From Mycobacteriales bacterium (lineage in GTDB: Bacteria > Actinomycetota > Actinomycetes > Mycobacteriales > CADCTP01), in assembly GCA_045806925.1 (NCBI GenBank), contig JBJMII010000102.1, forward strand, positions 1,478-65,477: DNA of 64,000 nt, in the 5' to 3' direction. Below, one piece after another: positions 16,386 through 59,190 of the stretch. The notes beneath the pieces were generated by a model. The model did not search any database. It was not told the DNA's origin and worked only from the letters and a program-made list of their open reading frames with translations. The position numbers and the translations under genes were made by a program. Numbering within the stretch: position 1 is the stretch's first letter; each line of letters starts with the position of its first letter.

Positions 16386-17351
16386 ATGAAGGCCATCGTG
16401 CACGAGTCGTACGGCGACACCGACGTCATCGAGTTCCGGGACGTCGCCCGGCCGGAGGTCGGCGATCGGGACGTGCTGGTCCGGGTCCGCGCGGCGGGCG
16501 TGGACCGGGGCGTCTGGCACGTGCTGACCGGCCGGCCCTACCTGATCCGGCTCGCCGGCTTCGGGGTCCGCCGGCCCAAGCACCCCGTGCTCGGTACCGA
16601 CGTCTCCGGCGTGGTCGAGGCCGTCGGCGGCGAGGTCACCCGGTTCCGCCCGGGCGACGAGGTGATGGGCGCCGGCACCGGCGCCTACGCCGAGCACACG
16701 GTGGCCCGGGAGGACCGGCTGGTGGCCAAGCCGGCCAACCTCAGCCACCAGCAGGCGGCCGCCGTGCCGGTCTCCGCGGTCACCGCCCTGCAGGCTCTCC
16801 GCGACCAGGGCCGGGTCCGGCCGGGGCAGCGGGTGCTGGTCATCGGCGCGTCCGGCGGCGTGGGGACGTACGCGGTGCAGCTCGGCAAGGCCCTCGGGGC
16901 GGAGGTCACCGGCGTGTGCAGCACCGGCAAGGTGGACCTGGTCCGCTCGCTCGGCGCCGACCACGTCATCGACTACACCCGCGAGGAGCTGGGCGGCGGA
17001 CCGTACGACCTGGTGGTCGACATCGCCGGGAACCGCCCGGTGTCGCTGATGCGGCGCCTGCTGACCCGGCGGGGCACCCTCGTCATCACCGGCGGCGAGG
17101 GCGGCGACCGGTGGACCGGCGGCCTGCACCGGCAGCTCTTCGCGCTCGCGACCTCGGCCTTCTCGCGGCGGCGGATGCCGGTCTTCGTGGCCCGGGTCAA
17201 GGACCCGGACCTGCGGTTCCTCGCCGGGCTCATCGAGGCCGGCAAGGTCACGCCGGCCGTCGACCGGACCTACTCGCTGGACCAGGCCCCGGAGGCCATC
17301 CGCCACCTGCTGGCCGGCCATGCCCGGGGCAAGCTCGTCCTCACGGTCTGA
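16386..17351 (+). CDS. Zinc-type alcohol dehydrogenase / NADPH:quinone oxidoreductase family (MDR) protein
   Basis: GASGGVGTYAVQLGKALGA nucleotide-binding motif. GGAGGA RBS at 16378-16383. 321 aa. Confidence 0.85.
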   Translation: MKAIVHESYGDTDVIEFRDVARPEVGDRDVLVRVRAAGVDRGVWHVLTGRPYLIRLAGFGVRRPKHPVLGTDVSGVVEAVGGEVTRFRPGDEVMGAGTGAYAEHTVAREDRLVAKPANLSHQQAAAVPVSAVTALQALRDQGRVRPGQRVLVIGASGGVGTYAVQLGKALGAEVTGVCSTGKVDLVRSLGADHVIDYTREELGGGPYDLVVDIAGNRPVSLMRRLLTRRGTLVITGGEGGDRWTGGLHRQLFALATSAFSRRRMPVFVARVKDPDLRFLAGLIEAGKVTPAVDRTYSLDQAPEAIRHLLAGHARGKLVLTV

Positions 17352-42471: not shown

Positions 42472-42689
42472 TCACGCTTCTGCCTGTTCGGCCCGCTCGC
42501 GGTCGGCCAGCATGCGTGCAACTCGTCGGCGTTGATCGCTTCGCCGCGGCTGATCTCGTCCTCGGCTTGGCGTATCTGTTCGAGCGCGTCGGGAGTGTCC
42601 AGGATGTCGAGGCTCTCCTCCAACGCCTGCAGGTCGGTCTCGTCGAGCACAGCGGGCAGCCCGGCTGACAACGTCGAGGGCTTGTTCAG
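42472..42689 (-). pseudogene. Phd/YefM-type antitoxin remnant (N-terminus missing, C-terminus frameshifted); a possible YoeB-like toxin scrap follows at about 42327-42475
   Basis: Reads GLPAVLDETDLQALEESLDILDTPDALEQIRQAEDEISRGEAINADELHA, and after a 1-nt shift near 42510-42520 continues MLADRERAEQAEA*. The reading frame begins inside the 3' end of the SARP gene. Downstream GTGAGCGATCATTTGCATATCAAACCTTCCTGGTGA gives VSDHLHIKPSW*, followed by broken frames. Confidence 0.4.
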
Positions 42690-45535
42690 CAGGCTCCTAA
42701 TGGGGCCGCCGCCTCCGGCAGGCAGGCGAAGCGCACGGTCTCCGCGACCGTCCGGCTGCGTCCTCGCTCCCGGGCCAGCTCGAAGTCGGCCGGGTCCAGC
42801 TCCCGCCGCACCCGGTCGACCGTCCCGGCCAGCCGGACCTGGTCCACCGGCGCGGGCACGGCCTCGGCCGCCTGCCGGAGCAGCTCCGCGGCGGCCAGCA
42901 GCGTGGCCGCCCGGACCGGGTCCCGCGCGGCCATCGCCAGCAGCTCCAGCGTGCTGGCCAGCCGGCCCCGGTCGCCGAGCTGGTGGAACGTGACCAGCGC
43001 GGCGACCAGCGCGGCCGTGGCCACCGCCGGGCTGCCGTCCGCGAGCGCGAGCCGGCCGAGCGCGAGCTGGGCCCGGGCGGTCCCGGCCGGGACCCCCAGC
43101 TGCCGGAGCCGCTCGCTCGCGTCCGCCAGCAGCGCCCTGGCGACGGCGTGGTCGCCGTGCACCGCTGCCAGCTCGCCGCGCTGCAGCGTGGCGGTGGCGA
43201 GCCCGGTCGCGTCGTCCAGCGCCAGGTAAAGCCGCGCGGCCTGGTCCAGCAGCGGGTACGCCGCCTCCGCTCGGCCGGTCACCGCCTCCAGCTCGGCCAG
43301 CAGGATCAGGTACTCCGCCGCCGCGTGCAGCCCACCGCCCGCCTGCGCGGACCGGAGCGCCCGACGGTAGAGGCTGGTCGCGGCGGCGTACCGGCCGCGG
43401 CCGGCGGCGAACGAGCCGAGCACGGCCAGCTCGCGGTGGGTCGCCGGCCGCTCGGCTGGCGGCCTGGTGCCGGTGTCCGGGCGCGACCGGTCCAGGATCG
43501 CGGCCAGCTCGGTGGCGGCGCCGACGTGGTCCCGCGCCACGAACCAGGACATCGCCTCGCGCAGGTTGTCCTCCTCCGCGGCGACCGCCTCGGGGCCGGC
43601 CGCCGGCGCCCACAGCCGGAAGTACGCGGCGTGCCGGCGGCGGCGCTCGGCCAGCCCGCCGCAGCTCTCCAGCCGGTGCCGGGCGAACTGGCGCAGCGGC
43701 TCCAGCAGGCGGTAGCGGACGGTCCGCGCGCCCGGCTCCACCATCACCATCGACTTGACCGCCAGGTCGGCCAGCAGCCCGAACGCGTCGGTGTCCCGGC
43801 CCGGCCGGGTGCAGACGCCGGCGGCGGCCGCCGCGGTGAAACCGCCGGCGAAGACCGACAGCTCCTGGAACAGCCGGCGCTCGTCCGGCTCCAGCAGCGC
43901 GTAGCTCCACTCCACGGCCCGCCGGAGCGTCCGGTGGTCCGGTCGGCCGGTCCGGCTGCCGCCGGTCAGCAGCCCGAGCTGGTCGTCCAGCCGGGCCGCC
44001 ACCTCCTCGATCGGCAGCGCGTCGAGGCGGGCCGCGGCCAGCTCGATGGCCAGCGGCACCCCGTCCAGCCGGCGCACGATGTCCTCGACGTACGGTGCCA
44101 GCCGGGAGGTGACCGCGAACCCGGGCCGGGCGGCGGCCGCCCGGTCCAGGAAGAGGGCGGTCGCGTCGTCGCAGTGCGCGCCGACGGCTGACCGGGGGCC
44201 GGCGCGCGGCGTCGGCAGCGGGGTGAGCCGCATCCGGTGCTCGCCCGGCACCGCGAGCGGCTCCCGGCTGGTGACCAGCAGCCGGATGCCGGGGCAGCCG
44301 GTGAGCAGCCGGACCGCCAGCCCGGCGCAGGCGTCGACGAGGTGCTCGCAGTTGTCGAGCACCACCACCGCGGCTCGGCCGCGGAGCTGGTCGACCAGGT
44401 CGCCGTCCGGCCGCAGGCCCAGCTCGGCGGCGACCGCCCCCGGCAGCCGGGCCGGGTCGGCCACCCCGGCAACCTGGACGAGGTGGGACGCCTCGAACCC
44501 GGGCTGGTTCAGCACGTGCTGGACCAGCCGGCTCTTGCCGCAGCCCGCCGGGCCGGTGATGGTCAGCAGCCGGATCCCGGCGATCAGCTGGAGCACCTCG
44601 CCGGCCTCGCGGACCCGCCCGACGAACCGGGTCAGCTGCTCGGGGCCATCGCGGCGGTCCGGCTCGGCCGCGGCCGCCGGGGTGTGCCGGGGAACCGTCG
44701 CGACGGCGCCGGTGGACCGCGGGGCGGCGCGGGTGGTCGGCCGGCCGATCCGGTGCGCGCGCGGCGCGGCCACCGCCCGCCGCTCCGGCGCGGCCAGGTC
44801 GAGCGCGGGGTTGCGGTCCAGCACGGCGGCCTGCAGCTCCTGCAGCTCCCGGCCGGGTTCGATGCCGAGCTCGGTGACCAGCGCCCGGCGGGCGTCCCGG
44901 TACGCCAGCAGCGCCTCGCCCGGCCGCCCGGCGCGGTAGAGCGCGAGCATGAGCTGGCCGCGCAGCCGCTCCCGCAGCGGGTGCTCGGCGACCAGCTGGC
45001 GCAGCCGGTCCACCAGGTCGGCGTGCTCGCCGAGCTCCAGGCCGACGTCGGTGCGCTCCTCGACCGCGCGCAGCCGTCGCTCCTCCAGCTGGACGCCCTC
45101 GGTCCGGCGCAGGTGGTCGGAACCCACGTCGGCGAGCGCCTGCCCTCGCCACAGCCGCAGCGCCTCGTCGAGGACGGCCGCCGCCGGCGCGGCGCTGCCG
45201 CCGGACCGGAGCGCCCTCGCCCGCTGGACGAGCGCCTCGAACCGGTGCAGGTCCAGGTCCTGCGGCGGGACATCCACCAGGTAGCCCGGCGCCCTGGTCC
45301 GGATCACCTGCGGCCCGAGCGCCCGGCGCAGCCGGAGCACGTACGTCTGCAGCGTCACCCGCGCGGTCTTCGGCGGCAGGGCGCCCCACAGCCGTTCGAC
45401 CAGCCGGTCCGTGGAGACCACCCGCCCCGCGTCGAGCAGCAGGGCTGCCAGCACCGCACGCTGCATCGGTGCGATGATCGGCAGCGGCTGCCCGTCCCGG
45501 GCGACCTCCAGCGGACCCAGAATCCCAAACTGCAT
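42686..45535 (-). CDS. Large SARP/AfsR-family regulator (OmpR-type winged helix + BTAD + NB-ARC-type ATPase + TPR)
   Basis: MQFGILGPLEV...RLWRGQALADV...LMLALYRAGRPGEAL (SARP/BTAD), ITGPAGCGKSRL (P-loop) and VVLDNCEHL. The C-terminus contains TPR-like repeats. GGAGAG RBS before ATG 45535. A TTA Leu codon sits at 42698-42700, four codons before the stop. Confidence 0.85.
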   Translation of the reverse strand: MQFGILGPLEVARDGQPLPIIAPMQRAVLAALLLDAGRVVSTDRLVERLWGALPPKTARVTLQTYVLRLRRALGPQVIRTRAPGYLVDVPPQDLDLHRFEALVQRARALRSGGSAAPAAAVLDEALRLWRGQALADVGSDHLRRTEGVQLEERRLRAVEERTDVGLELGEHADLVDRLRQLVAEHPLRERLRGQLMLALYRAGRPGEALLAYRDARRALVTELGIEPGRELQELQAAVLDRNPALDLAAPERRAVAAPRAHRIGRPTTRAAPRSTGAVATVPRHTPAAAAEPDRRDGPEQLTRFVGRVREAGEVLQLIAGIRLLTITGPAGCGKSRLVQHVLNQPGFEASHLVQVAGVADPARLPGAVAAELGLRPDGDLVDQLRGRAAVVVLDNCEHLVDACAGLAVRLLTGCPGIRLLVTSREPLAVPGEHRMRLTPLPTPRAGPRSAVGAHCDDATALFLDRAAAARPGFAVTSRLAPYVEDIVRRLDGVPLAIELAAARLDALPIEEVAARLDDQLGLLTGGSRTGRPDHRTLRRAVEWSYALLEPDERRLFQELSVFAGGFTAAAAAGVCTRPGRDTDAFGLLADLAVKSMVMVEPGARTVRYRLLEPLRQFARHRLESCGGLAERRRRHAAYFRLWAPAAGPEAVAAEEDNLREAMSWFVARDHVGAATELAAILDRSRPDTGTRPPAERPATHRELAVLGSFAAGRGRYAAATSLYRRALRSAQAGGGLHAAAEYLILLAELEAVTGRAEAAYPLLDQAARLYLALDDATGLATATLQRGELAAVHGDHAVARALLADASERLRQLGVPAGTARAQLALGRLALADGSPAVATAALVAALVTFHQLGDRGRLASTLELLAMAARDPVRAATLLAAAELLRQAAEAVPAPVDQVRLAGTVDRVRRELDPADFELARERGRSRTVAETVRFACLPEAAAPLGAC

Positions 45536-45660
45536 GCGTCTCTCCGACGGAGCCGCCCGGCCGACGACCACACGGTAGTTAAGTCATGACTCAGTGTCAG
45601 ACCGCTCTTCCGTCCTGCTAGTGGGCGTCTAGCGTCGATCCCGCGCGTTTGACCGGCGTG

Positions 45661-46920: not shown

Positions 46921-48459
46921 TCAGGGCCCTTCCTGGCCCGGTAGCCGGGCCGGTCCGGCCGGGCGGCGGCCCGCGGCGTACGCCACCGCGAACGCGGCGG
47001 TGAGCAGCCCGAGCAGCAGGAACGCGGCCGCGAACGTGCCGTGCAGCGCCGCCATCCGGGCGGCGCCGCCATCCGGCCCGGTGGCGAGCCGGTGCCGGGT
47101 CTCCAGGAACACCACGAAGGCGGCGCAGGACGCGGCGCCGACGGACCCGCCGAGGCTGCGGGCCAGGTTGAACAGCAGCGACCCGGACGGCGCCTGGGCC
47201 GAGGTCAGCGACCGGGTGACCAGCAGACCCAGCGCGGCGAGCAGCAGGCCGGCGCCGACCGACCGGGCCACCTGCGCGACGATGATCTCCGGGCCGGTCG
47301 GCGACTCGCCGGCGAGGAAGGGCACCAGCGCGCTCAGCGCGAAGATCGCGGCCCCGGCCACCGACACCAGGTGCGGGTCGACGCGCCGCAGCAGGATCGG
47401 CAGCGTCAGCGCGACCGCCAGCTGCACCACGCCGCCGTAGAGCGAGACCGTCCCGATCTCGCCGACCGAGTAGCCCAGCGTCGTGAGGTAGTAGGGGATC
47501 AGGAAGTAGCTGGCGTACACCGCCGCCCCGACGACGAGGTTGAACGAGCAGGTGCGCAGGAAGGGCAGCTGGCGCAGCAGGCGGAGGTCGACCAGCGGCC
47601 GGCGGGTCCGCAGCTCGGTGCGGACGAACAGGGCGAGCATCGCCACCGCGACGGCCGCGGCCAGGGTCACGGCGGCCGAGGTGAACCAGCCCCGCGCGTT
47701 GCCCGAGTCCAGCACGTACTGGGTGCAGTACAGCCCGACCACGGCGGCCCCCACGCTGACCAGGCTCACCTTCCGGCCGAGCGGGGAGCCGGCGGCCGGC
47801 ACCATCCGCAGGCCAGGCACGCCGAGCCAGAGGGCGACCGCCCCGACCGGCACCGACACGTAGTAGAGCGCCCGCCAGCTCGACCACTCGGCCAGGGTGA
47901 TGCACAGGACGGGCCCGAGCACGCCCGAGCCGGTGACGATGAAGGAGAAGGCGGAGATCGCCTTCGGCTGCTCCCGGCCCTGCATCAGCGCGACGATGAG
48001 GTAGTAGGCGAACGGCATGATCGCGCCGCTGGCCGCGCCCTGGACGATGCGCGCCACCACCAGGCTCTCGAAGCTCCACGCGTTCGCGCTCAGCAGCGCG
48101 CCCGCGACGAAGCAGGACACCAGCAGGACCAGGTAGGTCCGCGGGTGGAACACGCGGGTCAGGTAGGCGCTCAGCGCGAGGGTGACCAGCTCGGCGGTGG
48201 CGTAGGCGGAGATGACCAGGGCGCCCTTCGCCAGCGGCGCGCCGAGGCTCTGCTGGATGCTGCCCAGGGCGGTGCTGGTCATGGTCAGGTCCATGACCGT
48301 CATCGCCGCGGCGACGATGCTGCCCAGCACGGCCCGCCAGCGGTAGGCCGCCGGCACCGTCGTGGCCGGCCCGGCCGGCTCCACCGGGGTACCGGCCGCC
48401 GGGGTGCCCGGGGCCGGCCGGCGGCCGGGCCGGTCGGACGACCCGGACCCGGTCAGCAC
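46921..48459 (-). CDS. MFS transporter (drug:H+ antiporter-like, about 14 TM)
   Basis: The sequence is hydrophobic throughout, with the MFS signature region ARIVQGAASGAIMP. The proposed GTG 48459 overlaps the upstream stop (GTGCTGA). Confidence 0.75.
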   Translation of the reverse strand: MLTGSGSSDRPGRRPAPGTPAAGTPVEPAGPATTVPAAYRWRAVLGSIVAAAMTVMDLTMTSTALGSIQQSLGAPLAKGALVISAYATAELVTLALSAYLTRVFHPRTYLVLLVSCFVAGALLSANAWSFESLVVARIVQGAASGAIMPFAYYLIVALMQGREQPKAISAFSFIVTGSGVLGPVLCITLAEWSSWRALYYVSVPVGAVALWLGVPGLRMVPAAGSPLGRKVSLVSVGAAVVGLYCTQYVLDSGNARGWFTSAAVTLAAAVAVAMLALFVRTELRTRRPLVDLRLLRQLPFLRTCSFNLVVGAAVYASYFLIPYYLTTLGYSVGEIGTVSLYGGVVQLAVALTLPILLRRVDPHLVSVAGAAIFALSALVPFLAGESPTGPEIIVAQVARSVGAGLLLAALGLLVTRSLTSAQAPSGSLLFNLARSLGGSVGAASCAAFVVFLETRHRLATGPDGGAARMAALHGTFAAAFLLLGLLTAAFAVAYAAGRRPAGPARLPGQEGP

Positions 48460-49316
48460 GGCCCGCGGTCGGCCGGCCCGCCCGGCCCGCCGTCGCCCGG
48501 CGCACAGTCGGCCGGGCCGGTGACCTTCCGGCCCCAGGCGTACACGGTGACCGACCGGATGTCCCGGAAGCCCGGGGTCCGGCACAGGGCGAGCACCGCG
48601 TCCACGTCCGGCCCGGTCAGCAGCCCGCGGTCGACCAGGTAGCCGCCTTCCTGGCGGATGTTCGCCACCGACAGCCGACCGTACGGGCCGGGCTCGCCGA
48701 GGCAGTTGGCCCTGGTCAGCACGGCGACGTCGCGCAGGCCGGCGCGCGCCAGCTGGGAAGGCAGGGTCTGGGCCCAGGACATGTCGGTGCCCTGCGCGCG
48801 CCAGGCCGCCTCCAGCGCGGTGAAGAACCGCCGGACCGGCTCGTGCACCGAGCCCGCCGCCGGCAGGCACAGCGGGTCGCCGATCACCAGCCAGCCGCCC
48901 GGCGCCAGCCAGCGGACCGCCGCGGCGACCACCGACTCCCGCTCCGCGAGATGGCAGAACGTGCACCGGGAGTGCACCAGGTCGAACGAGCCGGGCGGGA
49001 GGTCCAGCGCGCCGACCTCGCCGGTACGGACCTCGAGGTTTCCCGGCGCCTCGCCGGCGAGGTAGCGGGTGTCGCTGTCGACCGCGACGACGCCGCCGTC
49101 GCGGCACTCCGCGGCCAGCCACCGCGCCACCGAGCCGGCGCCGGCCCCGATCTCCAGGCACCGCCACGAGGGGTCGAGCCCGATCGTCCGGAGGACGGCG
49201 TGGGTGTCGGGGTCACCCCACGCCTCCAGCAGCCGCAGCCGCTCCAGCTCCCCGGGGCTGTCCTTGCTCAGCGCGCCCTCGGAGTACGCGGTCGCCAAGC
49301 TCACCTCTCGACTCAT
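48453..49316 (-). CDS. Class I SAM-dependent methyltransferase
   Basis: CLEIGAGAGSVARWLA motif I and LAPGGWLVI. AGGAGA precedes ATG 49316. Confidence 0.8.
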   Translation of the reverse strand: MSREVSLATAYSEGALSKDSPGELERLRLLEAWGDPDTHAVLRTIGLDPSWRCLEIGAGAGSVARWLAAECRDGGVVAVDSDTRYLAGEAPGNLEVRTGEVGALDLPPGSFDLVHSRCTFCHLAERESVVAAAVRWLAPGGWLVIGDPLCLPAAGSVHEPVRRFFTALEAAWRAQGTDMSWAQTLPSQLARAGLRDVAVLTRANCLGEPGPYGRLSVANIRQEGGYLVDRGLLTGPDVDAVLALCRTPGFRDIRSVTVYAWGRKVTGPADCAPGDGGPGGPADRGPC

Positions 49317-50772
49317 GATCTCCTGCCTGACTCGTGGGAGCCGCGGCCAGCGGAGGCCGCCGGTGACGCTGGCCCAGCTCGGCTTCCAGCACCGCGGCGA
49401 CCCTCAGCACGGTCGCCTCGTCGAATCGTCGCCCGACCAGCTGCAGGCCGATCGGCAGGCCGTTGCGGGCGACGCCGGTCGGCAGGGACACCGCCGGGTG
49501 CCCGGACACGTTGAACGGGATGGTCTGCATCTCGCTGGCCAGCTTCGGCGGCGGCCAGTCGTCCGGGAAGTCGGCGAACCGCGCCGCGGTGGCCTGCCCG
49601 CACGCGGTGACCAGGACGTCGTGGCGACCGAAGGCCAGCTGGTCGAGCGCCCGGGTGAGCCGCCGCCGGACCTCCCGGGCCCGGAGCAGGTCGGCGGCCA
49701 GCACCCCGGCCCCCGGCAGCACCCGCTGGTAGGTGAACCGGCCGAACGAGCGCGGCCGCCGCCGCAGGTCGTCCTCGTGGACCGCGAAGGCCTCCGCCGC
49801 CATGATCACCCGGCCGCACGCGTTGAACAGGTCGTAGTCGGGGAGCTCGACCTCCTCGACGGTCGCGCCGCCGTGCTCGAGCACGGCGAGCGCCCGCTCG
49901 ATGGCGGCGACGATCTCCGGCATCGTGGCGGGGTCGCGGGCGTACCAGCCGGGGGAGTGGGCGACCTTCAGGCCGGCCACCCCGGCGGACAACCCGGCCA
50001 GGTAGTCGGGCACCGGCACGTCGCCGGCCCGCGGGTCAGCCGGGTCAGCCGGGTCGGCACCGGCGATCACTCGCAGGGCCGCCGCCGCGTCGGCCACCGT
50101 CCAGGCCAGCGGTCCGAAGTGGTCCAGCGTGACCGACAGCGGGTGCGCGCCGCGGCCGGGCACCCGGCCGTACGTCGGCTTGAGCCCCACCGCGCCGCAG
50201 TGGAACGCCGGGCCGCGGATCGACCCGCTGGTGTCGGAGCCGACGGCGATGGGGACCAGCCCGGCGGCCACCGCGGCGCCCGCTCCCGAGGACGAGCCGC
50301 TGGGCACGTGGTCCGGGCTCCAGGGGTTGCGCGCCGGCGGGAAGGGCAGGTCGAAGCTGGGCCCGCCTACGGCGAACTCGTAGGTCGTCAGCTTCCCGAG
50401 CAGGACCCCGCCGCCGGCGCGCAGCCGGTGCTCGACCGCGCTGTCCCGGGCCGGTACGTCCTCGACGGTCAGCCAGGAGCCATTGGTCGTCGGCAGCCCG
50501 CGCACGTCGAAGATGTCCTTCAGCGCGTACGGGATCCCGTGCAGCGGCCCGCGGTCCAGGCCGGCACTCAGCTCCCGGTCGGCCCGGGCGGCGCGCCGCA
50601 GCGCCAGCTCGCCGGTCACCAGGACGAACGCGTGCAGCGTCGGCTCCAGCCGGTCGATCGCCGCCAGCGCGTGCCGGGTGAGCTCCACCGACTTGAGGTC
50701 GCCGGAGCGCAGCAGCTCGCCGGCGTCGCGGACCGACAGCTCGCCGAGCGCCGCCGCCGCCGCGTCAGGCAT
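49213..50772 (-). CDS. Amidase-signature (AS) family amidase
   Basis: GIPYALKDIF (catalytic Lys region), SGSSSGAGAAVAAG and GSDTSGSIRGPA (Ser-cisSer). The reading frame runs 104 nt into the downstream methyltransferase gene. Confidence 0.8.
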   Translation of the reverse strand: MPDAAAAALGELSVRDAGELLRSGDLKSVELTRHALAAIDRLEPTLHAFVLVTGELALRRAARADRELSAGLDRGPLHGIPYALKDIFDVRGLPTTNGSWLTVEDVPARDSAVEHRLRAGGGVLLGKLTTYEFAVGGPSFDLPFPPARNPWSPDHVPSGSSSGAGAAVAAGLVPIAVGSDTSGSIRGPAFHCGAVGLKPTYGRVPGRGAHPLSVTLDHFGPLAWTVADAAAALRVIAGADPADPADPRAGDVPVPDYLAGLSAGVAGLKVAHSPGWYARDPATMPEIVAAIERALAVLEHGGATVEEVELPDYDLFNACGRVIMAAEAFAVHEDDLRRRPRSFGRFTYQRVLPGAGVLAADLLRAREVRRRLTRALDQLAFGRHDVLVTACGQATAARFADFPDDWPPPKLASEMQTIPFNVSGHPAVSLPTGVARNGLPIGLQLVGRRFDEATVLRVAAVLEAELGQRHRRPPLAAAPTSQAGDHESRGELGDRVLRGRAEQGQPRGAGAAAAAGGVG

Positions 50773-51871
50773 CCGGCGCCTCCGTCCCGGCTCCGCCGGC
50801 TCCGCCGGCGCTCGGCCCGGCCTGGCGCAGCAACGTGGTCATCTCCCGCAGCGCCCGGTAGCCGTGCAGCACGCCGCCGGCGAGGTCGGCCGGCACGTCC
50901 AGGTCCAGGCGCCGGGTCAGGACGTCGAGCTCCCGCTCGGCCGCGGCCGGGACCTGCCCCAGGTGGGCGCAGGTGATCAGGTCCAGCGACGCGCAGCCGG
51001 TCGAGCTGAAGACGGTCCGCCGCCGGTCCAGCCCGGCGGCCGCGGGCGACTCCAGCGCGTCGAGCTCGATCGCCGTCCGGTGCAGGTCACCGGCCTCCGC
51101 GACCGCGGTGGCGCGGTCCTCGACGATCAGCACGCTGCTGCGCAGGAGGTCCGCGTCCAGCTCGCGGGACCCGACCGTGTGCGCGCCCATGCAGTTGACG
51201 TGCACGTGGTCGGACAGGTCCGGCGAGATCGGCAGCGGGGCCGCCGACGTGGTCGCGGTGGCGAGGATGTCGACCCCGCGGCTGGCGTCCGCCGCCGAGC
51301 CGCACACGACCACCCTGGTGCCGTCGCCCGCGGCCTGCGCGACGTGGCGGCCGAAGGCCGCGGCACGGTCGGCCGTACGGGAGTAGATGCGCACCTCCTC
51401 CAGGTCGCGCACGGCCGACACCGCCCGGTACTGCAGGCGCGCCTGCACGCCGGCACCGATGATGCCGAGCACCCCGCCGGCCGGCGCCGCGCACCGGTCG
51501 GTCACCAGGGCCGTCACCGCCGCACACTTGAGGTTGGTCACGACGGCGCCGTCCATCACCCGGAGGACCCTCCCGCTCCCCGCCGCGAAGACCGACACGA
51601 CCGACGTTACCGTCGTGTCCCTGCCGCCAACGCTGTCCGGGACAATTGTAGCAGTCTTGTTTATGAACAGGTCGTAGTCGGGCGATACGGCAGGCATGGA
51701 CACGTACTTCCGACCGGTCGGGTCCTCGACGACCTCGCGGCGCGGGACGGTCATGCGCCGGACGGCGCCGCGCCGCAGCGCGGCGCTCATCTCAGCGGCC
51801 AGCGACCGGACCAGGTCCACGGAGGGCTCGCCGGGGGAGGCCGGCGGGCCGGGACCGCCGGCCGCCCTCAC
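50765..51871 (-). CDS. Ornithine cyclodeaminase / mu-crystallin family NAD(P)-dependent enzyme
   Basis: GIIGAGVQARLQ Rossmann motif, with family-typical length and blocks. GTG 51871 overlaps the upstream stop (GTGA). Confidence 0.7.
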   Translation of the reverse strand: MRAAGGPGPPASPGEPSVDLVRSLAAEMSAALRRGAVRRMTVPRREVVEDPTGRKYVSMPAVSPDYDLFINKTATIVPDSVGGRDTTVTSVVSVFAAGSGRVLRVMDGAVVTNLKCAAVTALVTDRCAAPAGGVLGIIGAGVQARLQYRAVSAVRDLEEVRIYSRTADRAAAFGRHVAQAAGDGTRVVVCGSAADASRGVDILATATTSAAPLPISPDLSDHVHVNCMGAHTVGSRELDADLLRSSVLIVEDRATAVAEAGDLHRTAIELDALESPAAAGLDRRRTVFSSTGCASLDLITCAHLGQVPAAAERELDVLTRRLDLDVPADLAGGVLHGYRALREMTTLLRQAGPSAGGAGGAGTEAPDA

Positions 51872-53106
51872 CCGGCACCGTCCAGCACGGCGAGGAGCAC
51901 GGAGGCGAAGTCGTCCGTCATCGCGGCGGTCATGTCGCCGCGCAGCATCAGCCGCACCCCGGCCTGGCCGCGGGCGACGATCGGGAAGAACATTGCCGAG
52001 CAGTAGTAGCCGCGGCGGTAGAGCTCGGTGGACAGCCGCACCGCCGCGTCGTTGTCGCCGACGGTGACGAACTTGATGTGCGAGCCGGCCCCGCGCAGGC
52101 CCCGCCCCGCCAGCCGGCGGTCGAAGAGCCGGACGTTGTCGGCCAGCCGGCGCTGCCGCCGGCCGAGCTCAACGCTCCGGTGCACCTCGATGCTGCCGAG
52201 GCTGGTGCCCACGGCCGCCGTCCGCAGCCCCTGCGACCAGCCGAGCGGGCCGGACCGGTAGAGGAAGTCGTACCTGCCGGGGGAGCCGATCATCGCGATG
52301 CCGCCGGTGCTGCCGAACGCCTTGGCGATCGAGGCCACCACGATGGTCCGGTCGTCCAGCTCCGCGAAGACCGACCGCGCGTAGCCCTCGCCGTGCCGGC
52401 CCTGGGTGGACAGCGCGTGCGAGTCGTCGACGTACAGGAACAGGCCGTACCGGTCCTGCAGCGCGCGCAGGCCGGCCAGGTCGGCGAGACCGCCGACGGA
52501 GTACGCGCCCTCGCACACGTACGCCACCCGGGGGTGCTGCCGGCACACGTCCTCCAGGAACTGCATGTCGTTGTGCGGGCTGGTCAGCACCATCGCCTCG
52601 TCGGCGACGACCGGCTTGAGGAAGCTCAGCGAGAAGTGCGCGAACCGGTCGAAGACGACGACGAGCGGCTCGCTGTCGGTGAGGTGGCCCGAGGCCAGCA
52701 GCGGCAGCAGCGCGGCGCTGAGCACACCGCACGAGATCGACGGCAGCACGCGGGCGCCGAAGAGCTCCGACAGCTCCTCCTCCAGCCGGTGCATCAGCTC
52801 CAGCCGGATCCGGAACTCCGCCATCGCCAGGCCGGTGATGCCCTGCTCCCGCAGCGCGGCCACGCCGCCGGCGACGACCGCGGGATGGCTGTTCAGCCCC
52901 AGGTACGAGCACGAGGAGAGGTTCACGAACTCGTGCCCGGTGCGGACGTCGCGCAGCCGGTTCTGGCCGGCCACCGCCTCGACCCGGATGTCCAGCATGC
53001 CGCTGTCCCGGGCGAGCCGCCACGCGGACTCGCTGGCCGGGACCATGCGCTGGTTGTTCCTGAACCGGTGCGGTCCGACCACGGTGTCGCGGTCGAGGTC
53101 GGTCAC
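51868..53106 (-). CDS. PLP-dependent alpha-oxoamine synthase family enzyme (AONS/SPT/ALAS-like)
   Basis: VNLSSCSYLGL, YVDDSHALS (D..H) and SIAKAFGSTGG (PLP-Lys motif S.xK..G..GG). GTG 53106 overlaps the upstream stop (GTGA). Confidence 0.75.
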   Translation of the reverse strand: MTDLDRDTVVGPHRFRNNQRMVPASESAWRLARDSGMLDIRVEAVAGQNRLRDVRTGHEFVNLSSCSYLGLNSHPAVVAGGVAALREQGITGLAMAEFRIRLELMHRLEEELSELFGARVLPSISCGVLSAALLPLLASGHLTDSEPLVVVFDRFAHFSLSFLKPVVADEAMVLTSPHNDMQFLEDVCRQHPRVAYVCEGAYSVGGLADLAGLRALQDRYGLFLYVDDSHALSTQGRHGEGYARSVFAELDDRTIVVASIAKAFGSTGGIAMIGSPGRYDFLYRSGPLGWSQGLRTAAVGTSLGSIEVHRSVELGRRQRRLADNVRLFDRRLAGRGLRGAGSHIKFVTVGDNDAAVRLSTELYRRGYYCSAMFFPIVARGQAGVRLMLRGDMTAAMTDDFASVLLAVLDGAG

Positions 53107-54071
53107 CGTCCCGCCCCCTCCGCGGCCGCCGGCAGCCGGCCGGCGCGCCGCCCGGTCGGCGGGGACTGCAGGAAGCGCCCCAGCCGGCCGAGCGCCTGCC
53201 GCGCCTTGGCCAGCCGCCGGTGGTGCAGGTGCCAGACGTGCACCATCCCGGGCCAGACCTCGAGCGTGACCGGGGAGCCGGCGTCGGCCAGCTTGGCGGC
53301 GAACCGCTCGGCGTCGCTGAGCAGCATCTCCCGCTCGCCCACCTGGATGAGGACGGGAGGGAGGCCGTGCACGGACCCGTACAACGGGGAGGCGTAGGGC
53401 GTCTCCGGGGGGACGCCGGCCAGGTAGGACTCGGCCACCAGCGCCACCACCCGCCTGGTGATCAGGGGGTCGACCGCCTCCTTGGTCCGGAACGTCTCGC
53501 CGGTTCCGGCCAGGTCCACCCACGGCGAGATGCACGCCGCCGCCCGGGGCATCGGCAGGCCCTGGTCCCGGGCGGCGAGCAGGGTCGCCAGCACCAGGCC
53601 GCCGCCGGCCGAGTCCCCGGCCACCACGACGGCGCCCGGTGGCCACCCCTCGTCCAGCAGCCCGGCGTACGCGCTCACCGCGTCCTGCAGCGCCGCCGGG
53701 TAGCGGTGCTCCGGCGCCCGGCGGTACTGCAGGTGCAGCATCGGGCAGCGCGCCGCGCGCGCGGCCTCGGCGGCCAGGCTGCCGTGGCTGGCCTGGGAGC
53801 CGTAGACGTAGCCGCCGCCGTGCAGGTACAAGCCGATCGTCGAGTCGTCGGCGTCCGGCGGGGTCAGCAGGTACGCCGGTACGTCGCCGACCGGTCGGCG
53901 GCGCACCCGGACGTCCGGCGCGACCGGCGCCCCCCAGGCGTCGTAGAAGCGCCGGGCCTCGGCGATGTCGTCCGGCCACCGGTCCGCCGCGAGCGCAGTC
54001 AGCAGGCGCGCCAGCTCCGCCTCGTCGGCTGCCGTGATGGCCGGGACGTCTCCGCTGCGCACCGGTGCCAC
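53103..54071 (-). CDS. Alpha/beta hydrolase fold-3 (HSL-like esterase/lipase)
   Basis: LHGGGY oxyanion motif and the GDSAGG nucleophile elbow. 322 aa. Confidence 0.8.
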   Translation of the reverse strand: MAPVRSGDVPAITAADEAELARLLTALAADRWPDDIAEARRFYDAWGAPVAPDVRVRRRPVGDVPAYLLTPPDADDSTIGLYLHGGGYVYGSQASHGSLAAEAARAARCPMLHLQYRRAPEHRYPAALQDAVSAYAGLLDEGWPPGAVVVAGDSAGGGLVLATLLAARDQGLPMPRAAACISPWVDLAGTGETFRTKEAVDPLITRRVVALVAESYLAGVPPETPYASPLYGSVHGLPPVLIQVGEREMLLSDAERFAAKLADAGSPVTLEVWPGMVHVWHLHHRRLAKARQALGRLGRFLQSPPTGRRAGRLPAAAEGAGR

Positions 54072-55071: not shown

Positions 55072-55920
55072 TCAGCCGACCGGTTTCGCCGTCTCGTCGT
55101 GGAGCCGCAGCATCCGCCGGGCCCTGAGCACGAACGGGGGCGCGAGCACGCCGTCCTCGGTCACGGCGAAGCCCTGCACGTTCCGCTCGTACTCGCGGAT
55201 CGTCCGGCGGTAGCCGGCCAGCTCGGCCGGGTCCACGGCGAACGCGTCGGTGATCGGGTCGACCTGCCGCGGGTGGATGGCCGCCTTGCCGGTGAAGCCG
55301 CAGCGCCGCGCGGCCTCGCTGGCTGCCCGGACCACGTCCATGTCCCGCAGCTCGAACGAGTTCGTGTCGATGGCCGGCAGCCCGTACTTGGCGGCCGCGA
55401 CGCACAGCCGCGCGCGGGCGTGCCCGAGGAACGACTCGTTCGGCGCGTACATCTCGGCGACCAGGTCCGCCTGCCCGAAGCACAGCCCGTCGCTCAGCGC
55501 GGCGATCTCGTACGCGTTCTCCACCGCGTCCACCGTCTCGATGAAGCTGCAGATGTCGACCGGGTCGGGCAGACCCGACAGCAGCGACCGGTAGACGACG
55601 ACATCGCCGCCGCCGGCGACCTTGGGCACGAAGACCGTCTGCACCGGGACTCCGCCGACCCGGCCGCCCAGCGCGAGCACCGCCTCGACGTCGCGCAGGC
55701 CGTCCGGGGTCGCGATGCTGTTGACCCGCAGGCCGACCCCGGGCAGCCCGGACCCGGACAGGTCGACGCTCGCCAGCCGGTCGCGGGCCGCGCCCTTCGC
55801 GTGCGCCGGGATGGAGTCCTCGAGGTCGAGCACCACCATGCCGGTCCGCGGCGGCACCGACCGGAGCAGCGCGTCGACGCGGAGCGCCGGGGTGTAGAGC
55901 AGGCACGGGTGCACCCTCAT
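55072..55920 (-). CDS. HpcH/HpaI aldolase / citrate lyase beta-subunit (CitE)-like protein
   Basis: VVLDLEDSI, CFGQADL and GKAAIHPRQV blocks are typical of CitE/malyl-CoA lyase-type enzymes. ATG 55920 overlaps the upstream stop (ATGA). Confidence 0.75.
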   Translation of the reverse strand: MRVHPCLLYTPALRVDALLRSVPPRTGMVVLDLEDSIPAHAKGAARDRLASVDLSGSGLPGVGLRVNSIATPDGLRDVEAVLALGGRVGGVPVQTVFVPKVAGGGDVVVYRSLLSGLPDPVDICSFIETVDAVENAYEIAALSDGLCFGQADLVAEMYAPNESFLGHARARLCVAAAKYGLPAIDTNSFELRDMDVVRAASEAARRCGFTGKAAIHPRQVDPITDAFAVDPAELAGYRRTIREYERNVQGFAVTEDGVLAPPFVLRARRMLRLHDETAKPVG

Positions 55921-56870
55921 GCCGAGCCCTCCCGGCCGAACAGCGCGTTCATCTTCTGCAACGAGAAGGCCTCGTAGCGGATCGGCTCGTACCGGGCCGC
56001 GCGGGTCCGGGTGAACGTCGGGAAGCACTCGATGACCGCGTCGTCGTTGGCCAGCTTGAAGAAGACCACGGACTGCCGCGGCCGGTCGGCCAGCTTGACC
56101 CGGTGCGGCGTCGAGACGTACTCGTCGTTGGACCAGCGCGCCATCAGGTCGCCGATGTTGACGACGAACCAGTCCCGCCGGCCGTCCCCGACGTCCAGCC
56201 AGCGGCCGGCCACGTCCCGGATCTGCAGGCCGGGGCCGTCCTGGGTGAGCAGCGTGATGAGGGTGCCGTCGGTGTGCTCGCCCATGCCCTGGTCGGTGCG
56301 GAGCTCCGGGCGCAGGCCGGGGTAGTAGTGGGAGCGGAGCGAGTCGTTCGACCGGTCGGTCCGGGTCGCGAAGAAGTCGCGCGGCAGCTCGAGCGCGACG
56401 GTCAGCAGCTCGGCGATCCTGCCGGCCACCGTCTCGCACGCGGCGAAGTAGTCCCTCAGGGCGGTCCGCAGCCGGCCGCCCTGCTCGTCCGGTGGGAACG
56501 GCAGGTCCTCGGTGTCGTCCAGGACGAGCCGGCCGACGCTGAACTTCTCCACGTAGTCCGACGGCATGCCCGGCCGGCCGGTGTAGGCGTACGCGTTCTC
56601 GGACAGCAGCGCGCTGTACCCGTACGGGCTGTAGTCGTTCTCGCCGCGGCGGGTGCTGGTGCGCATCGCGTACTCGCGCTTCTGTCCGGTCGGCCGGCGG
56701 AAGAACTCGAGGGACGCGGAGTACGCGTGGTCGAAGACCGCCGGCTCGATGCCGTGGTCGCGCACCACGAAGAACCCGACCTGCATGCACGCCGCCGAGA
56801 TCTCCGCGGCCACGGCCGGCTCGTCGCCGGACCGGGCCCGCTCCAGACTGATCACCGGAATGGACGTCAT
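55917..56870 (-). CDS. 2OG-Fe(II) oxygenase, isopenicillin-N-synthase/DIOX_N type
   Basis: IPVISL...GFFVVRDHGI (DIOX_N); HTDGTLITLL (HxD), STPHRV (distal His) and RQSVVFF (RxS). ATG 56870 overlaps the upstream stop (ATGA). Confidence 0.85.
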   Translation of the reverse strand: MTSIPVISLERARSGDEPAVAAEISAACMQVGFFVVRDHGIEPAVFDHAYSASLEFFRRPTGQKREYAMRTSTRRGENDYSPYGYSALLSENAYAYTGRPGMPSDYVEKFSVGRLVLDDTEDLPFPPDEQGGRLRTALRDYFAACETVAGRIAELLTVALELPRDFFATRTDRSNDSLRSHYYPGLRPELRTDQGMGEHTDGTLITLLTQDGPGLQIRDVAGRWLDVGDGRRDWFVVNIGDLMARWSNDEYVSTPHRVKLADRPRQSVVFFKLANDDAVIECFPTFTRTRAARYEPIRYEAFSLQKMNALFGREGSA

Positions 56871-57418
56871 CTCTCTCCCTCGGTCGGCACCGGGCGGCCG
56901 GTCCGCCGGTCCCCGGCGGCCCGGAGGGACACCAGGACCGTCCGGAGGAACTCGATGACCCGCGCGCCGTGCTGGTTGAGCCCGACGGTGCGCACCGTGA
57001 CGACGCCCTCGCCGGGCCGGGAGGCGGAGGGCCGCTTCGCGATGACGGTGGTCTCCGCGTAGAGCGTGTCGCCGACATGCACGGGGGCGCTCAGCCGCAC
57101 GTTGTCCCAGCCCAGGTTGGCGACGGCCTTCTGGCTGACCGACCGGACCGTCATCCCGTTGACGATGCTGAAGGTCACCAGGCTCGACACCAGCGCCTGC
57201 CCGAACGGGGTCCGCGCGGCGTACGCGCCGTCGATGTGGAGCGGGTGCTGGTTGAGGCACAGCAACGAGCTCCAGGTGTTGTCGGTGGCGGAGATGGTCC
57301 GCCCGGGCCGGTGCTCGATGACGTCGCCGACGACGAAGTCCTCGTACTGCAGCCCGTGGTCCTCCCGGTACCGGCCGGGCTCCAGCTCGAGGTAGGCCGG
57401 CAGCTCCTCGGCGCTCAT
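56867..57418 (-). CDS. MaoC-like (R)-specific enoyl-CoA hydratase/dehydratase (hotdog fold)
   Basis: FVVGDVIEHRPGRTI...NQHPLHIDGAYAA...FGQALVSS. ATG 57418 overlaps the upstream stop (ATGA). Confidence 0.75.
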   Translation of the reverse strand: MSAEELPAYLELEPGRYREDHGLQYEDFVVGDVIEHRPGRTISATDNTWSSLLCLNQHPLHIDGAYAARTPFGQALVSSLVTFSIVNGMTVRSVSQKAVANLGWDNVRLSAPVHVGDTLYAETTVIAKRPSASRPGEGVVTVRTVGLNQHGARVIEFLRTVLVSLRAAGDRRTGRPVPTEGER

Positions 57419-59190
57419 CGCGCGATCTCGGCCGAGCCGACCGGCTGCGGCCCGGCCGTGCGGAGTCCGTGCAGGGCGCCGCCGCGGTGCAGCGCGGCGA
57501 GCACCGACCTCACCGCGGCGACCGGCTCGGTCGGCGCCAGCCCCACGCCCCACACCGGCCGCCGGTCCACCAGCACCTCCGCGTAGCACACCCGCCGCGG
57601 GCCGGCCGGGATGCCGGTCTCCGCACCGGTGAGCTGTCGGAGCTCGGCCTGGGTCCCGCCGGCGCGCACGGCGCCCAGCAGCGTCCCGACCGGATCGTCG
57701 CGGTCGTCGAGCTCGAACACCGCGGTCCCCGGGACGGTGACGACGACCGCGCCGCCGTCGCCGGTGCACGGGGTCCGGACTGTGCCGCCCGGCTCGCAGT
57801 ACTCGGCCCGGAAGAGTTCCCAGAGCCGGCCGGGCTCCAGCTCCGTGCCGGTGCTGTCGGCGACCCGCTGCACCACCCGGGCGAAGTCGACGCGCAGGCC
57901 GGTGGGGAGGTCGAGGCCCCAGCGGGCGTGCAGCACGTGGGCGATGCCGCCCTTGCCCGACTGGCTGTTCACCCGGATGATCGCGCGGTAGTCACGGCCG
58001 ACGTCGTGCGGGTCGATCGGCAGGTACGGCACCTGCCACGGCAGCTCCGCGGGCGTCCGCCGGGCGGCCGCGGCCCGGTCGGCCAGGTGCGCGAGGCCCT
58101 TGGCGACGGCGTCCTGGTGGGTGCCGGAGAACGCGGTGAACACCAGGTCCCCGGCGTACGGGTGCCGGGGGTGCACCGGCATCTCGTTGCACCGCTCGAC
58201 GACGTCCCGGACGGTGGTCAGGTCGGAGAGGTCGAGCTGCGGGTCGACGCCGCGGCTGAACTGGTTGAGCGCGAGCGTGACCAGGCAGACGTTGCCGGTC
58301 CGCTCCCCGTTGCCGAACAGCGTCCCCTCGACCCGGTCCGCCCCGGCGGCGAGGGCGAACTCGGCGGCCGCCACGGCGGTGCCGCGGTCGTTGTGCGGGT
58401 GCACCGAGAGGATGATCGCCGCGCGCCGGTCCAGGTTGCGGTGCATCCACTCGACCTGGTCGGCGAAGACGTCCGGGGTGTGCACCTCCACCGTGGTCGG
58501 CAGGTTGAGCGTCAGCGGCCGGTCCGCGCTCGCGTCGACCACCTCGGCGACGGTGTTCGCGATCTCCAGCGCGAAGTCCGGCTCGGTGAGGTTGAAGGTC
58601 TCCGGGGAGTACTCGAACCGGATGCCGGAGCCGGCCGTCCGGTCGGCCAGCCGCACCATCAGCCGCGCGCTGTCCCGGGCGAGCGCCAGCACTTCGGCCG
58701 GGGTCAGCCTGAACACGACCTCCCGCCACAGGCAGGCCGTGGCGTGGCACAGGTGCACGATCGCGCGGTCGGCGCCGCGGACCGCGTCGAAGGTCCGCTC
58801 GATCAGGTCCGCCCGGGCCGGCGTGAAGACGGAGATGGTCACGTCGTCCGGGATGCGGTCGGCGGTGATCAGCTCGCGGACGAACCCGAAGTCGGCCTCA
58901 CTGGCCGACGGGTAGCCGACCTCGATGTCCTTGACGCCGATCCGGACCAGCAGGTCGAACATCGACCGCTTGCGGCGCAGGTCCATCGGGTTGGCCAGCG
59001 CCTGGTTGCCGTCGCGCAGGTCCACCGAGCTCCATAGCGGTGCCCGGTCGACCGGGCGGTCGATCCAGGCGCGCGAGCCGGGCGCTGGCCGGTCGGCGCG
59101 GACGTACCGGTGCACGGGCATGGCGGACGGCCGCTGCGGATTCCACCATGGCTGCGTCCCGGATCGGTCGGCCGGGGAGGTCGTGGACAC
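57415..59190 (-). CDS. 2-isopropylmalate synthase paralogue (long LeuA type with C-terminal regulatory domain)
   Basis: VDLRDGNQAL, IEVGYPSASEADF, SVHPHNDRGT and GTLFGNGERTGN. The usually conserved H.YNSTS block reads HLCHATA, which suggests a diverged paralogue rather than the housekeeping leuA. Confidence 0.8.
   Translation of the reverse strand: MSTTSPADRSGTQPWWNPQRPSAMPVHRYVRADRPAPGSRAWIDRPVDRAPLWSSVDLRDGNQALANPMDLRRKRSMFDLLVRIGVKDIEVGYPSASEADFGFVRELITADRIPDDVTISVFTPARADLIERTFDAVRGADRAIVHLCHATACLWREVVFRLTPAEVLALARDSARLMVRLADRTAGSGIRFEYSPETFNLTEPDFALEIANTVAEVVDASADRPLTLNLPTTVEVHTPDVFADQVEWMHRNLDRRAAIILSVHPHNDRGTAVAAAEFALAAGADRVEGTLFGNGERTGNVCLVTLALNQFSRGVDPQLDLSDLTTVRDVVERCNEMPVHPRHPYAGDLVFTAFSGTHQDAVAKGLAHLADRAAAARRTPAELPWQVPYLPIDPHDVGRDYRAIIRVNSQSGKGGIAHVLHARWGLDLPTGLRVDFARVVQRVADSTGTELEPGRLWELFRAEYCEPGGTVRTPCTGDGGAVVVTVPGTAVFELDDRDDPVGTLLGAVRAGGTQAELRQLTGAETGIPAGPRRVCYAEVLVDRRPVWGVGLAPTEPVAAVRSVLAALHRGGALHGLRTAGPQPVGSAEIAR

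Follow-up and report, generated by a model that had tools for sequence, protein, structure and literature searches.

Within a 64,000-nucleotide stretch of a Mycobacteriales bacterium genome (GenBank assembly GCA_045806925.1, contig JBJMII010000102.1; hereafter the window, in which all positions are counted), a gene for an alpha-oxoamine synthase (AOS) overlaps one for a homologue of the ornithine cyclodeaminase (OCD)/mu-crystallin family, and the question is what joins these two enzymes. Both open reading frames (ORFs), their family motifs, and the GTGA in which they meet are present on the minus strand exactly where a first-pass annotation of the sequence had placed them, with the AOS stop codon TGA (51868-51870) overlapping a GTG at 51869-51871. 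That annotation regarded the two as coupled and offered two routes, in which the OCD homologue either reduces a cyclic imine formed from the AOS product or supplies a Pro- or pipecolate-type amino acid as the AOS substrate. In full-text literature searches, no paper was found that reports an AOS gene clustered with one of the OCD family. We tentatively propose that the AOS and the OCD homologue act one after the other in a specialized-metabolite pathway independent of nonribosomal peptide synthetases (NRPS) and polyketide synthases (PKS), in which the OCD homologue saturates a conjugated double bond.

The AOS scores 442.9 bits against the NCBIfam subfamily PRK07505 (cut-off, 342) and falls below the NCBIfam equivalog cut-offs of bioF, Kbl, ALAS, and SPT; its 133 bits against the bioF equivalog TIGR00858 (cut-off, 426) indicate that it is not BioF proper. 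Its 52 matches among PDB sequences at E <= 1e-3 are all to AOS-family proteins, the top one being 8XHA (E 8e-76). The SIAKAFGSTGG block spans residues 259-269 and contains Lys262, and DDSHA spans residues 227-231; Lys262, Asp227/Asp228, and His230 are invariant among 23 orthologues, and both the lysine block that binds pyridoxal phosphate (PLP) and the cofactor-holding Asp/His pair are thus present. The protein is predicted to be a PLP enzyme joining an amino acid to an acyl-CoA. In the substrate loop, Glu97-Phe98 is invariant in the main clade of these enzymes, and position 97 is Thr in the clade of ketomemicin (ktm) enzymes described below; Glu97 is not retained in deep OCD-linked AOS lineages, and the pair therefore does not fix the amino acid substrate.

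Its partner is a clear member of the OCD/mu-crystallin family, with 125 bits against Pfam PF02423 (gathering score, 24) and a GIIGAGVQA Rossmann motif (G-x-G-x-x-A) in which G139, G141, and A144 are invariant. The closest solved structures are those of ketimine reductase/mu-crystallin (4BV8 and 2I99, E 1e-29) and Pyr2C reductase (6T3E), over a range of E 1e-29 to 1e-22. Pyr2C-reductase-type models rank highest among the NCBIfam equivalogs, and the homologue lies below all of the cut-offs, reaching 129 bits with PRK07340, the best of them (cut-off, 266), and 70 and 85 bits with the cyclodeaminase models PRK07589 and PRK08291 (cut-offs, 350 and 408); it may still act as a reductase despite falling short of the Pyr2C/Pip2C and ketimine reductase models. 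We also inspected the positions of Glu63, Arg121, Asp236, and Lys240 of the lysine cyclodeaminase SpLCD, whose ligand contacts are published (PMC5935100), and of Asp228 of PpOCD. Aligned to SpLCD, the homologue has Lys115 for Arg121, His231 for Asp236, and Ser235 for Lys240, and the candidates for Glu63, placed by spacing from Lys72 and not by alignment, are Val57 and Ser58, neither of them acidic. The dinucleotide motif is Ser-Arg-Thr, compared with Asn-Arg-Thr in NADPH-binding mu-crystallin and Asp-Thr-Asp in the NAD+ cyclodeaminase. As to the residue check proposed in the first-pass annotation, the ornithine/lysine-binding residues are lost and the cofactor motif is of the NADPH type. Arg45 and Lys72 of the carboxylate site are retained, and Lys115-Cys116 together with His231, which we call the K-C/H signature, are invariant in 28 members, the most distant at 32% identity. 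Our best reading of these residues is that the homologue is probably a dedicated pathway reductase and not a cyclodeaminase, the candidates for the bond reduced being a conjugated C=C, possibly by way of an imine tautomer, and a cyclic imine.

Only residues ~1-305 of the OCD ORF belong to this fold, and the annotation of the whole frame as one OCD-family gene does not hold for the last ~60 residues, which form a separate conserved peptide. Searches with tblastn find a small ORF matching this tail directly upstream of the amidase gene in 34 other loci, mostly in a different frame from OCD and often 1.5 kb away from it, and it is in the window that the peptide is fused in frame to OCD. In locus L027 the homologue is a separate ORF after a stop codon (L027:12148-12372), and another lies at L001:13748-13882; the consensus is ...EF..L..RLGIEVPADL..GVL.GY..LR.M..LLR. 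Neither the tail nor the small ORFs matched any NCBIfam model, and our guess from the sequence pattern is that they might be a partner, of the GatC/AtzG type, for the GatA/AtzE-like amidase. In Embleya sp. NBC_00888 (L032:11194-13605), the OCD frame stays open for ~800 further codons and may run into an M24 peptidase gene.

A scan of one genome per species yielded 44 related loci, of which 43 were scored for gene content, and it bears out the adjacency of the two genes among related genomes. The in-frame overlap of AOS stop and OCD start recurs in 37 of 39 loci (20 ATGA and 17 GTGA), so the overlapping GTG is very probably the true OCD start and the coupling selected, although a public gene call of the same protein (P0003, 351 residues) begins 17 codons downstream. 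Adjacency and the 4-nucleotide overlap are conserved in Streptomyces, Kitasatospora, Embleya, and Nocardia and in metagenome-assembled genomes (MAGs) of Frankiaceae, Micromonosporaceae, and Streptosporangiaceae, and the link to an AOS gene holds in other gene orders for OCD relatives of 34-47% identity, including those of Burkholderia, Corallococcus, and metagenomic contigs. An exhaustive OCD profile search returned, at E <= 1e-30, 62 representative clusters; the K-C/H signature is present in 44 of the best 150, and an AOS gene lies within 5 kb in all six distant K-C/H contexts sampled (34-46% identity, varied orders). The partners across these six include CitE plus MaoC, an NRPS, a Ddl-like ligase, an arginyl-tRNA synthetase (ArgRS), and an M24 peptidase with a proline-racemase-family gene. 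Inherited synteny without a common pathway could be entertained since related actinomycetes account for most loci and few partner changes are needed on the AOS tree, but the linkage persists in different phyla, at low OCD identity and in varied orders, the overlap is retained in nearly all loci, and the whole sampled K-C/H subfamily is linked to an AOS gene; descent as the sole explanation is close to refuted. These patterns support a functional coupling of the two genes, as the first-pass annotation had supposed.

What the coupling could serve is suggested by an outlying locus of the scan, L038, which combines CitE-AOS-MaoC with a PGM1-type ligase. A search with its AOS returned 72 loci, including some from Micromonospora sp. 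ATCC 39149 and from Salinispora; the ktm clusters of both have been described, and the product of the former has been validated by heterologous expression (PMC11943689). The ktm cluster codes for KtmA (an aldolase), KtmB (a PLP C-acyltransferase), KtmC (a dehydratase), KtmD (a PGM1-type ligase), KtmE (an amidinotransferase), and KtmF (a dehydrogenase), and the ktm-like variants surveyed all retain ktmA-F (PMC11943689). By family or motif, the ATCC 39149 cluster (L101) contains the PGM1-type ligase, a medium-chain dehydrogenase/reductase (MDR) corresponding to KtmF, CitE, AOS, MaoC, and the amidinotransferase; its AOS is 52% identical to that of the window, its MaoC 59%, and its CitE 35%, the ranges over ktm clusters being 59-60% for MaoC and 32-35% for CitE. 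By tblastn with the L101 proteins, the window cluster has no homologue of KtmD, KtmE, or KtmF, the sole match among these in the window being an unrelated MDR gene (16386-17093, 34% identical). In a FastTree phylogeny of the AOS proteins, the ktm clade has as its sister the OCD-linked main clade (42 rows, support 100), and deep long branches are likewise OCD-linked. We read the window cluster as a ktm-like module, a sister of ktm biosynthesis, in which the OCD homologue stands where ktm has KtmF, and this placement raises, alongside cyclic-imine reduction, the reduction of a conjugated double bond.

The two reductases replace one another across the 119 AOS loci from reference genomes, where OCD without KtmF occurs in 48, KtmF without OCD in 56, both in none, and neither in 15. 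Nocardia loci L105 and L108 lie within the ktm AOS clade and have CitE-AOS-MaoC-OCD and no KtmF; conversely, Cysteiniphilum (L133), within the OCD-type clade, has a KtmF-like MDR, split into two ORFs, right after the AOS gene and no OCD. The minimal modules L050, L053, and L105 contain no reductase other than OCD, and no alternative reductase was found in L122 and L123, which have neither OCD nor KtmF. Five Kitasatospora genomes carry both an OCD-type and a KtmF-type cluster (L041 and L060 in K. aburaviensis, L028 and L067 in K. hibisci, L026 and L081, L025 and L073, and L034 and L064), and the two types are therefore distinct pathways.

Whereas the gene families, the conserved coupling, the relationship to ktm, the lack of KtmF, and the loss of cyclodeaminase residues are seen in the sequences themselves, we infer the substrates, the bond reduced, and the product as follows. 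Starting from a 2-oxo acid and either acetyl- or malonyl-CoA, the CitE-type aldolase and the MaoC-type dehydratase would produce an unsaturated dicarboxylic acyl-CoA; the leucine pathway is a possible source of the 2-oxo acid, and this origin would account for the presence of a LeuA (2-isopropylmalate synthase) paralogue in the cluster. The AOS would join this acyl-CoA to an amino acid with loss of CO2, giving a 5-amino-4-oxo acid, and the OCD homologue would act as the dedicated NADPH reductase in KtmF's place. It could saturate the conjugated C=C directly by delivering hydride to C2, which bears the carboxylate and is isosteric with the carbon of an imino acid, or the dienamine tautomer of the amino-enone could give an alpha-imino ketone that the OCD homologue then reduces. 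The ketomethylene-type amino acid product would then be hydroxylated, ligated or trimmed, and exported.

Saturation of the conjugated bond is favored by the exchanges between OCD and MDR dehydrogenases, and several observations weigh against it. To our knowledge, no OCD/mu-crystallin member reduces a C=C bond, those characterized acting on C=N or C-N at a carboxylate-bearing carbon, and KtmF itself is only reportedly a double-bond reductase (work of Kawata et al. in 2017). The counts from the 119 loci are not phylogenetically independent, and the AOS tree needs just two partner changes. In Corallococcus coralloides (L131) and the metagenomic locus L132, AOS and OCD are next to each other, CitE and MaoC being absent within 10 kb, and a KtmF-like MDR (31-34% identical) lies in a divergent KS-KS operon; the two reductases are therefore not always exclusive, and OCD tracks AOS and not the enoyl-forming genes. 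Locus L122 has CitE-AOS-MaoC without any reductase, and the many clusters with M24B Xaa-Pro-type peptidases, with one that has a proline-racemase-family gene, better fit a proline-like cyclic product. Such a product is what the first of the annotation's routes would give, with the aminoketone cyclizing and the OCD homologue reducing the imine to a substituted pyrrolidine, piperidine, or proline-like imino acid; the ring could close through the side-chain amine of Orn, Lys, 2,4-diaminobutyrate, or Arg on the new ketone, or through the alpha-amine and a 2-oxo acid terminus that the Fe/2-oxoglutarate (2OG) oxygenases of the cluster would introduce. This route is favored by the known chemistry of the family, whose nearest characterized relatives are the cyclic ketimine reductases (mu-crystallin/thiomorpholine-carboxylate dehydrogenase and the Pyr2C and Pip2C reductases), by the persistence of the AOS-OCD pair without CitE/MaoC, its adjacency outlasting the change of acyl donor in Corallococcus, and by the recurrent M24B aminopeptidase/dipeptidase genes; the NADPH-type motif, the Pro_racemase-family gene with DAO beside one cluster, a variant that feeds an NRPS and so suggests an amino-acid building block, the ArgRS gene beside L050 as a hint of a basic amino acid, and the Glu97/Thr difference between main and ktm clades point the same way. 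However, an AOS removes the alpha-carboxylate, so an imine between ketone and side-chain amine would lack the adjacent carboxylate for the family's usual site, and the minimal modules that keep OCD lack the TauD-like oxygenase on which the 2-oxo acid route depends. Cyclic-imine reduction is also harder to square with the exchange of OCD for KtmF-like MDRs, which are not typical imine reductases, and Glu97 is lost in the deep OCD-associated lineages; we consider it somewhat unlikely.

Two further roles for the OCD homologue are improbable. It could reduce the new C4 ketone to a vicinal amino alcohol (a hydroxyethylene-type isostere), paralleling 3-ketosphinganine reductase after serine palmitoyltransferase. 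An AOS followed by a ketoreductase is the paradigm of sphingolipid synthesis, the MDR enzymes that replace OCD could be alcohol dehydrogenases, and the carboxylate-binding Arg is changed to Lys-Cys; against these stand that we know of no OCD-family ketoreductase and that the ketone is retained in ketomemicins despite the presence of KtmF in their clusters (PMC11943689), and we give ketone reduction little weight. About as doubtful is that the OCD homologue acts upstream and makes the amino acid for the AOS, as a cyclodeaminase or as an alanine dehydrogenase-like enzyme on a 2-oxo acid of the LeuA/CitE branch. The family does include an archaeal alanine dehydrogenase and cyclodeaminases, the cluster has a source of 2-oxo acid in its LeuA paralogue and CitE lyase, and two residues of the carboxylate site, Arg45 and Lys72, are kept, but the cyclodeaminase residues are missing, OCD is kept in Nocardia clusters without LeuA and Corallococcus clusters without CitE, and ordinary transaminases suffice to supply an amino acid. 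Provision of Pro or pipecolate, the annotation's second route, is unlikely for the additional reasons that the dinucleotide motif is of the NADPH type and that an AOS works through a PLP aldimine, which secondary amines are unable to form.

Saturation of a conjugated bond thus remains the reading that we prefer, and it can be extended into a broader and more speculative proposal, to which we attach a little less confidence: the K-C/H subfamily may have been recruited to a substrate other than an alpha-imino acid, namely the amino-enone or alpha-imino-ketone product of a KtmB-type AOS, so that enone or imino-ketone reduction would be a new reaction for the family. The cluster might then make a third, undescribed class of ketomethylene pseudopeptides, probably with a residue from the leucine pathway and not Phe or Tyr; this class would be widespread among actinomycetes, Burkholderia, and myxobacteria. 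The sole natural ketomethylene pseudopeptides are, as stated in PMC11943689, the ketomemicins and the arphamenines, all with a Phe- or Tyr-derived C-terminal residue. Our literature search found no published arphamenine gene cluster, and a search with the Burkholderia AOS brought up no homologue from Chromobacterium, either in the scan or among the best 120 proteins, which is not evidence of absence.

The AOS and OCD genes belong to a 13-gene minus-strand operon whose members are joined by overlaps or tiny gaps (Table 1), and which comprises the LeuA paralogue, MaoC hydratase, IPNS-type 2OG oxygenase, CitE-type lyase, TauD-like oxygenase, esterase, AOS, OCD, amidase, methyltransferase, major facilitator superfamily (MFS) exporter, ATP-grasp-like ligase, and SARP genes. 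None of the 43 related loci has an equivalent of the MmpL gene at the head of the operon; this gene may be a local addition. The methyltransferase is found in only 12 of the loci. An apparent 668-residue "CitE fusion" ORF (55072-57078, minus strand) was discarded as a high-G+C artifact, a frame plot of third-codon-position G+C (GC3) resolving it into MaoC, 2OG oxygenase, and CitE genes joined by ATGA overlaps. An AlphaFold model of the TauD-like protein (pLDDT 77, pTM 0.81) has as its top Foldseek matches only TauD, CsiD/GlaH, AtsK, or CarC, with probabilities up to 1.0 and modest TM scores of 0.3-0.44, and H155-x-D157 and H248 of an H-x-D...H iron triad are invariant, as are R264 and R267; by predicted fold and iron triad it is probably a divergent TauD/CsiD-type Fe(II)/2OG oxygenase. 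A second LeuA, 54% identical, is encoded elsewhere in the genome of the window, which is an 80%-complete MAG. A bestatin (AHPA-Leu) product, an idea prompted by the LeuA paralogue and Streptoverticillium-type hosts, was set aside. A stand-alone condensation-domain protein (2923-4227, plus strand) and a cytochrome P450 (25743-26918, minus strand) are encoded far from the operon, and no link to it was seen.

Table 1. Features of the AOS-OCD operon, in window coordinates
Feature	Position	Strand	Basis
MmpL-family transporter, head of operon	59194-61443	minus	
2-Isopropylmalate synthase (LeuA) paralogue	57415-59190	minus	NCBIfam PRK03739, 692 bits
MaoC/mesaconyl-CoA-hydratase-type dehydratase, KtmC-like	56867-57418	minus	Pfam MC_hydratase and MaoC; RipB/Ich 208 bits, below cut-off
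IPNS-type 2OG-Fe(II) oxygenase	55917-56870	minus	Pfam DIOX_N and 2OG-FeII_Oxy; limits from GC3 frame plot
CitE/HpcH-type acyl-CoA aldolase-lyase, KtmA-like	55072-55920	minus	Pfam HpcH_HpaI; RipC/Ccl 119 bits, below cut-off
Probable divergent TauD/CsiD/CarC-like Fe(II)/2OG oxygenase, 324 aa	54079-55053	minus	Predicted fold; no Pfam hit
Hormone-sensitive-lipase (HSL)-type esterase, Abhydrolase_3	53103-54071	minus	Pfam 195 bits; GESAG HSL subfamily 270 bits, cut-off 430
AOS, 412 aa	51868-53106	minus	PRK07505 subfamily, solved-structure matches, likeness to ktm AOS
GTGA stop/start overlap of AOS and OCD	51868-51871	minus	Read directly
OCD/mu-crystallin ORF, 368 aa	50765-51871	minus	Pfam PF02423, GIIGAGVQA
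OCD/mu-crystallin-fold reductase domain (predicted), residues 1-305 of the 368-aa ORF	50957-51871	minus	PF02423, solved relatives
C-terminal tail of OCD ORF, last ~60 residues	50765-50956	minus	tblastn: matches separate small ORFs elsewhere
Amidase-signature amidase, GatA/AtzE-like	49213-50772	minus	Pfam Amidase 313 bits; AtzE family 301 bits, below cut-off
Class I S-adenosylmethionine methyltransferase, weakly like carboxyl O-methyltransferases BioC/Tam	48453-49316	minus	Family searches; BioC 27 bits, cut-off 185
MFS exporter	46921-48459	minus	Pfam MFS_1
ATP-grasp-like ligase candidate, 419 aa	45661-46920	minus	No significant family match; GSP_synth faintly, at E 0.31
SARP-family regulator with AAA domain	42686-45571	minus	Pfam BTAD and Trans_reg_C

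Among the 43 scored loci, OCD is present in 39, MaoC, CitE, and the TauD-like oxygenase in 38 each, and AOS in 38-39, with LeuA, the IPNS-like oxygenase, the esterase, and the amidase each in 34-36; the Nocardia loci keep the core and are without LeuA, the IPNS-like oxygenase, and the esterase. In Burkholderia ubonensis (L037), OCD and AOS share a cluster at a distance of 4 kb, and the region between them (L037:11232-14422) holds a second PRK07505-type AOS (496 bits), a 299-residue protein, and a gene of the fatty-acid-desaturase family. LeuA is present in the Burkholderia cluster as a catalytic domain of proteobacterial type that lacks the regulatory domain, which suggests independent recruitment for a leucine-pathway precursor. 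That LeuA is a self-resistance copy is less likely, as the regulatory-domain-free, own-type LeuA of Burkholderia better fits precursor supply. CitE and MaoC are fused in a 456-residue protein in L054 (2249-3619) and L055 (2093-3463), and esterase and AOS in a 716-residue protein (P0363) in L132 (9001-11151), suggesting that the fused pairs act consecutively. The Corallococcus and L132 clusters keep the TauD-like protein, esterase, AOS, OCD, 2OG oxygenase, and ligase candidate, the last with 31-44% identity in Corallococcus and metagenomic clusters, and have a divergent set of KS-KS, thioesterase, aldo-keto reductase, MDR, and acyl-CoA dehydrogenase genes instead of CitE/MaoC.

Several neighbors of related clusters bear mention. 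A multi-module NRPS (A-T-C-A-T-C...) directly follows the cluster in a metagenomic variant (L048:4188-9347), where the product may serve as a building block. In L050, an ArgRS gene (943-2718) adjoins an MFS gene together with a minimal AOS-MaoC-CitE-OCD set; as a possible self-resistance copy, it would hint at an arginine-like product. Genes of the M24B Xaa-Pro aminopeptidase/dipeptidase type recur at L009:12168-13784, L037:3614-4897, L132:14499-15983, and L133:5486-8984 (two in Cysteiniphilum) and are absent from the window copy; they could serve processing or self-resistance, or could be a sign of a proline-like product.

The cluster family, with 39 reference-genome loci across Actinomycetota and Burkholderia plus Corallococcus and metagenome contigs, appears to have a ketomethylene-forming core and to differ in its reductase, tailoring genes, and likely building blocks. 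Ketomethylene isosteres are classic protease-inhibitor scaffolds, and the family is a concrete target in searches for new protease-inhibitor-like or antimetabolite compounds. The K-C/H signature marks an unstudied branch of OCD/mu-crystallin proteins with a possibly new activity, and the AOS-reductase pair could be a natural one for biocatalysis of chiral amino-ketone or cyclic amine products.

Among known systems, the closest solved structure to the AOS is that of Alb29, which serves albogrisin biosynthesis as an alpha-oxoamine synthase specific for L-glutamate (PDB 8XHA; Zhang et al. 2024, Int J Biol Macromol 268:131696). The match extends across residues 24-403, and the PLP Lys and Asp/His motifs are common to both; scored as 259 bits against 52% identity for the ktm-type AOS, this likeness is the weaker one. 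The OCD homologue shares with mu-crystallin/ketimine reductase and Pyr2C reductase an NADPH-type Arg-Thr motif and the absence of the cyclodeaminase acidic residues, but the carboxylate-binding Arg-Thr of these reductases (in an R-T-A-A block) is replaced by the invariant Lys115-Cys116, and CRYM has Ser in place of the invariant His231. With the cyclodeaminases (PpOCD, 1X7D; SpLCD, 5GZI; PMC5935100) it shares the fold and the Rossmann motif, and Lys72 aligns with their carboxylate-binding Lys, whereas Arg121, Asp236, Lys240, Glu63, and Asp-Thr-Asp are all changed. By analogy only, the operon recalls the BioC-BioH-BioF logic of biotin synthesis, a methyltransferase candidate, an alpha/beta-hydrolase esterase, and a BioF-family AOS lying in one operon, although the methyltransferase is weakly BioC-like, the esterase is of the HSL type and not BioH, and the AOS is below the bioF cut-off. 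The nearest system is ktm, which like the window cluster is NRPS/PKS-independent and has one reductase per module. The ktm reductase is an MDR and that of the window has the OCD/mu-crystallin fold, and the window cluster adds the LeuA paralogue, two Fe/2OG oxygenases, the esterase, the amidase, the methyltransferase, and a different ligase candidate; what sets it apart from known ktm clusters is that its ketomethylene-type module has a reductase of the OCD fold and other tailoring genes.

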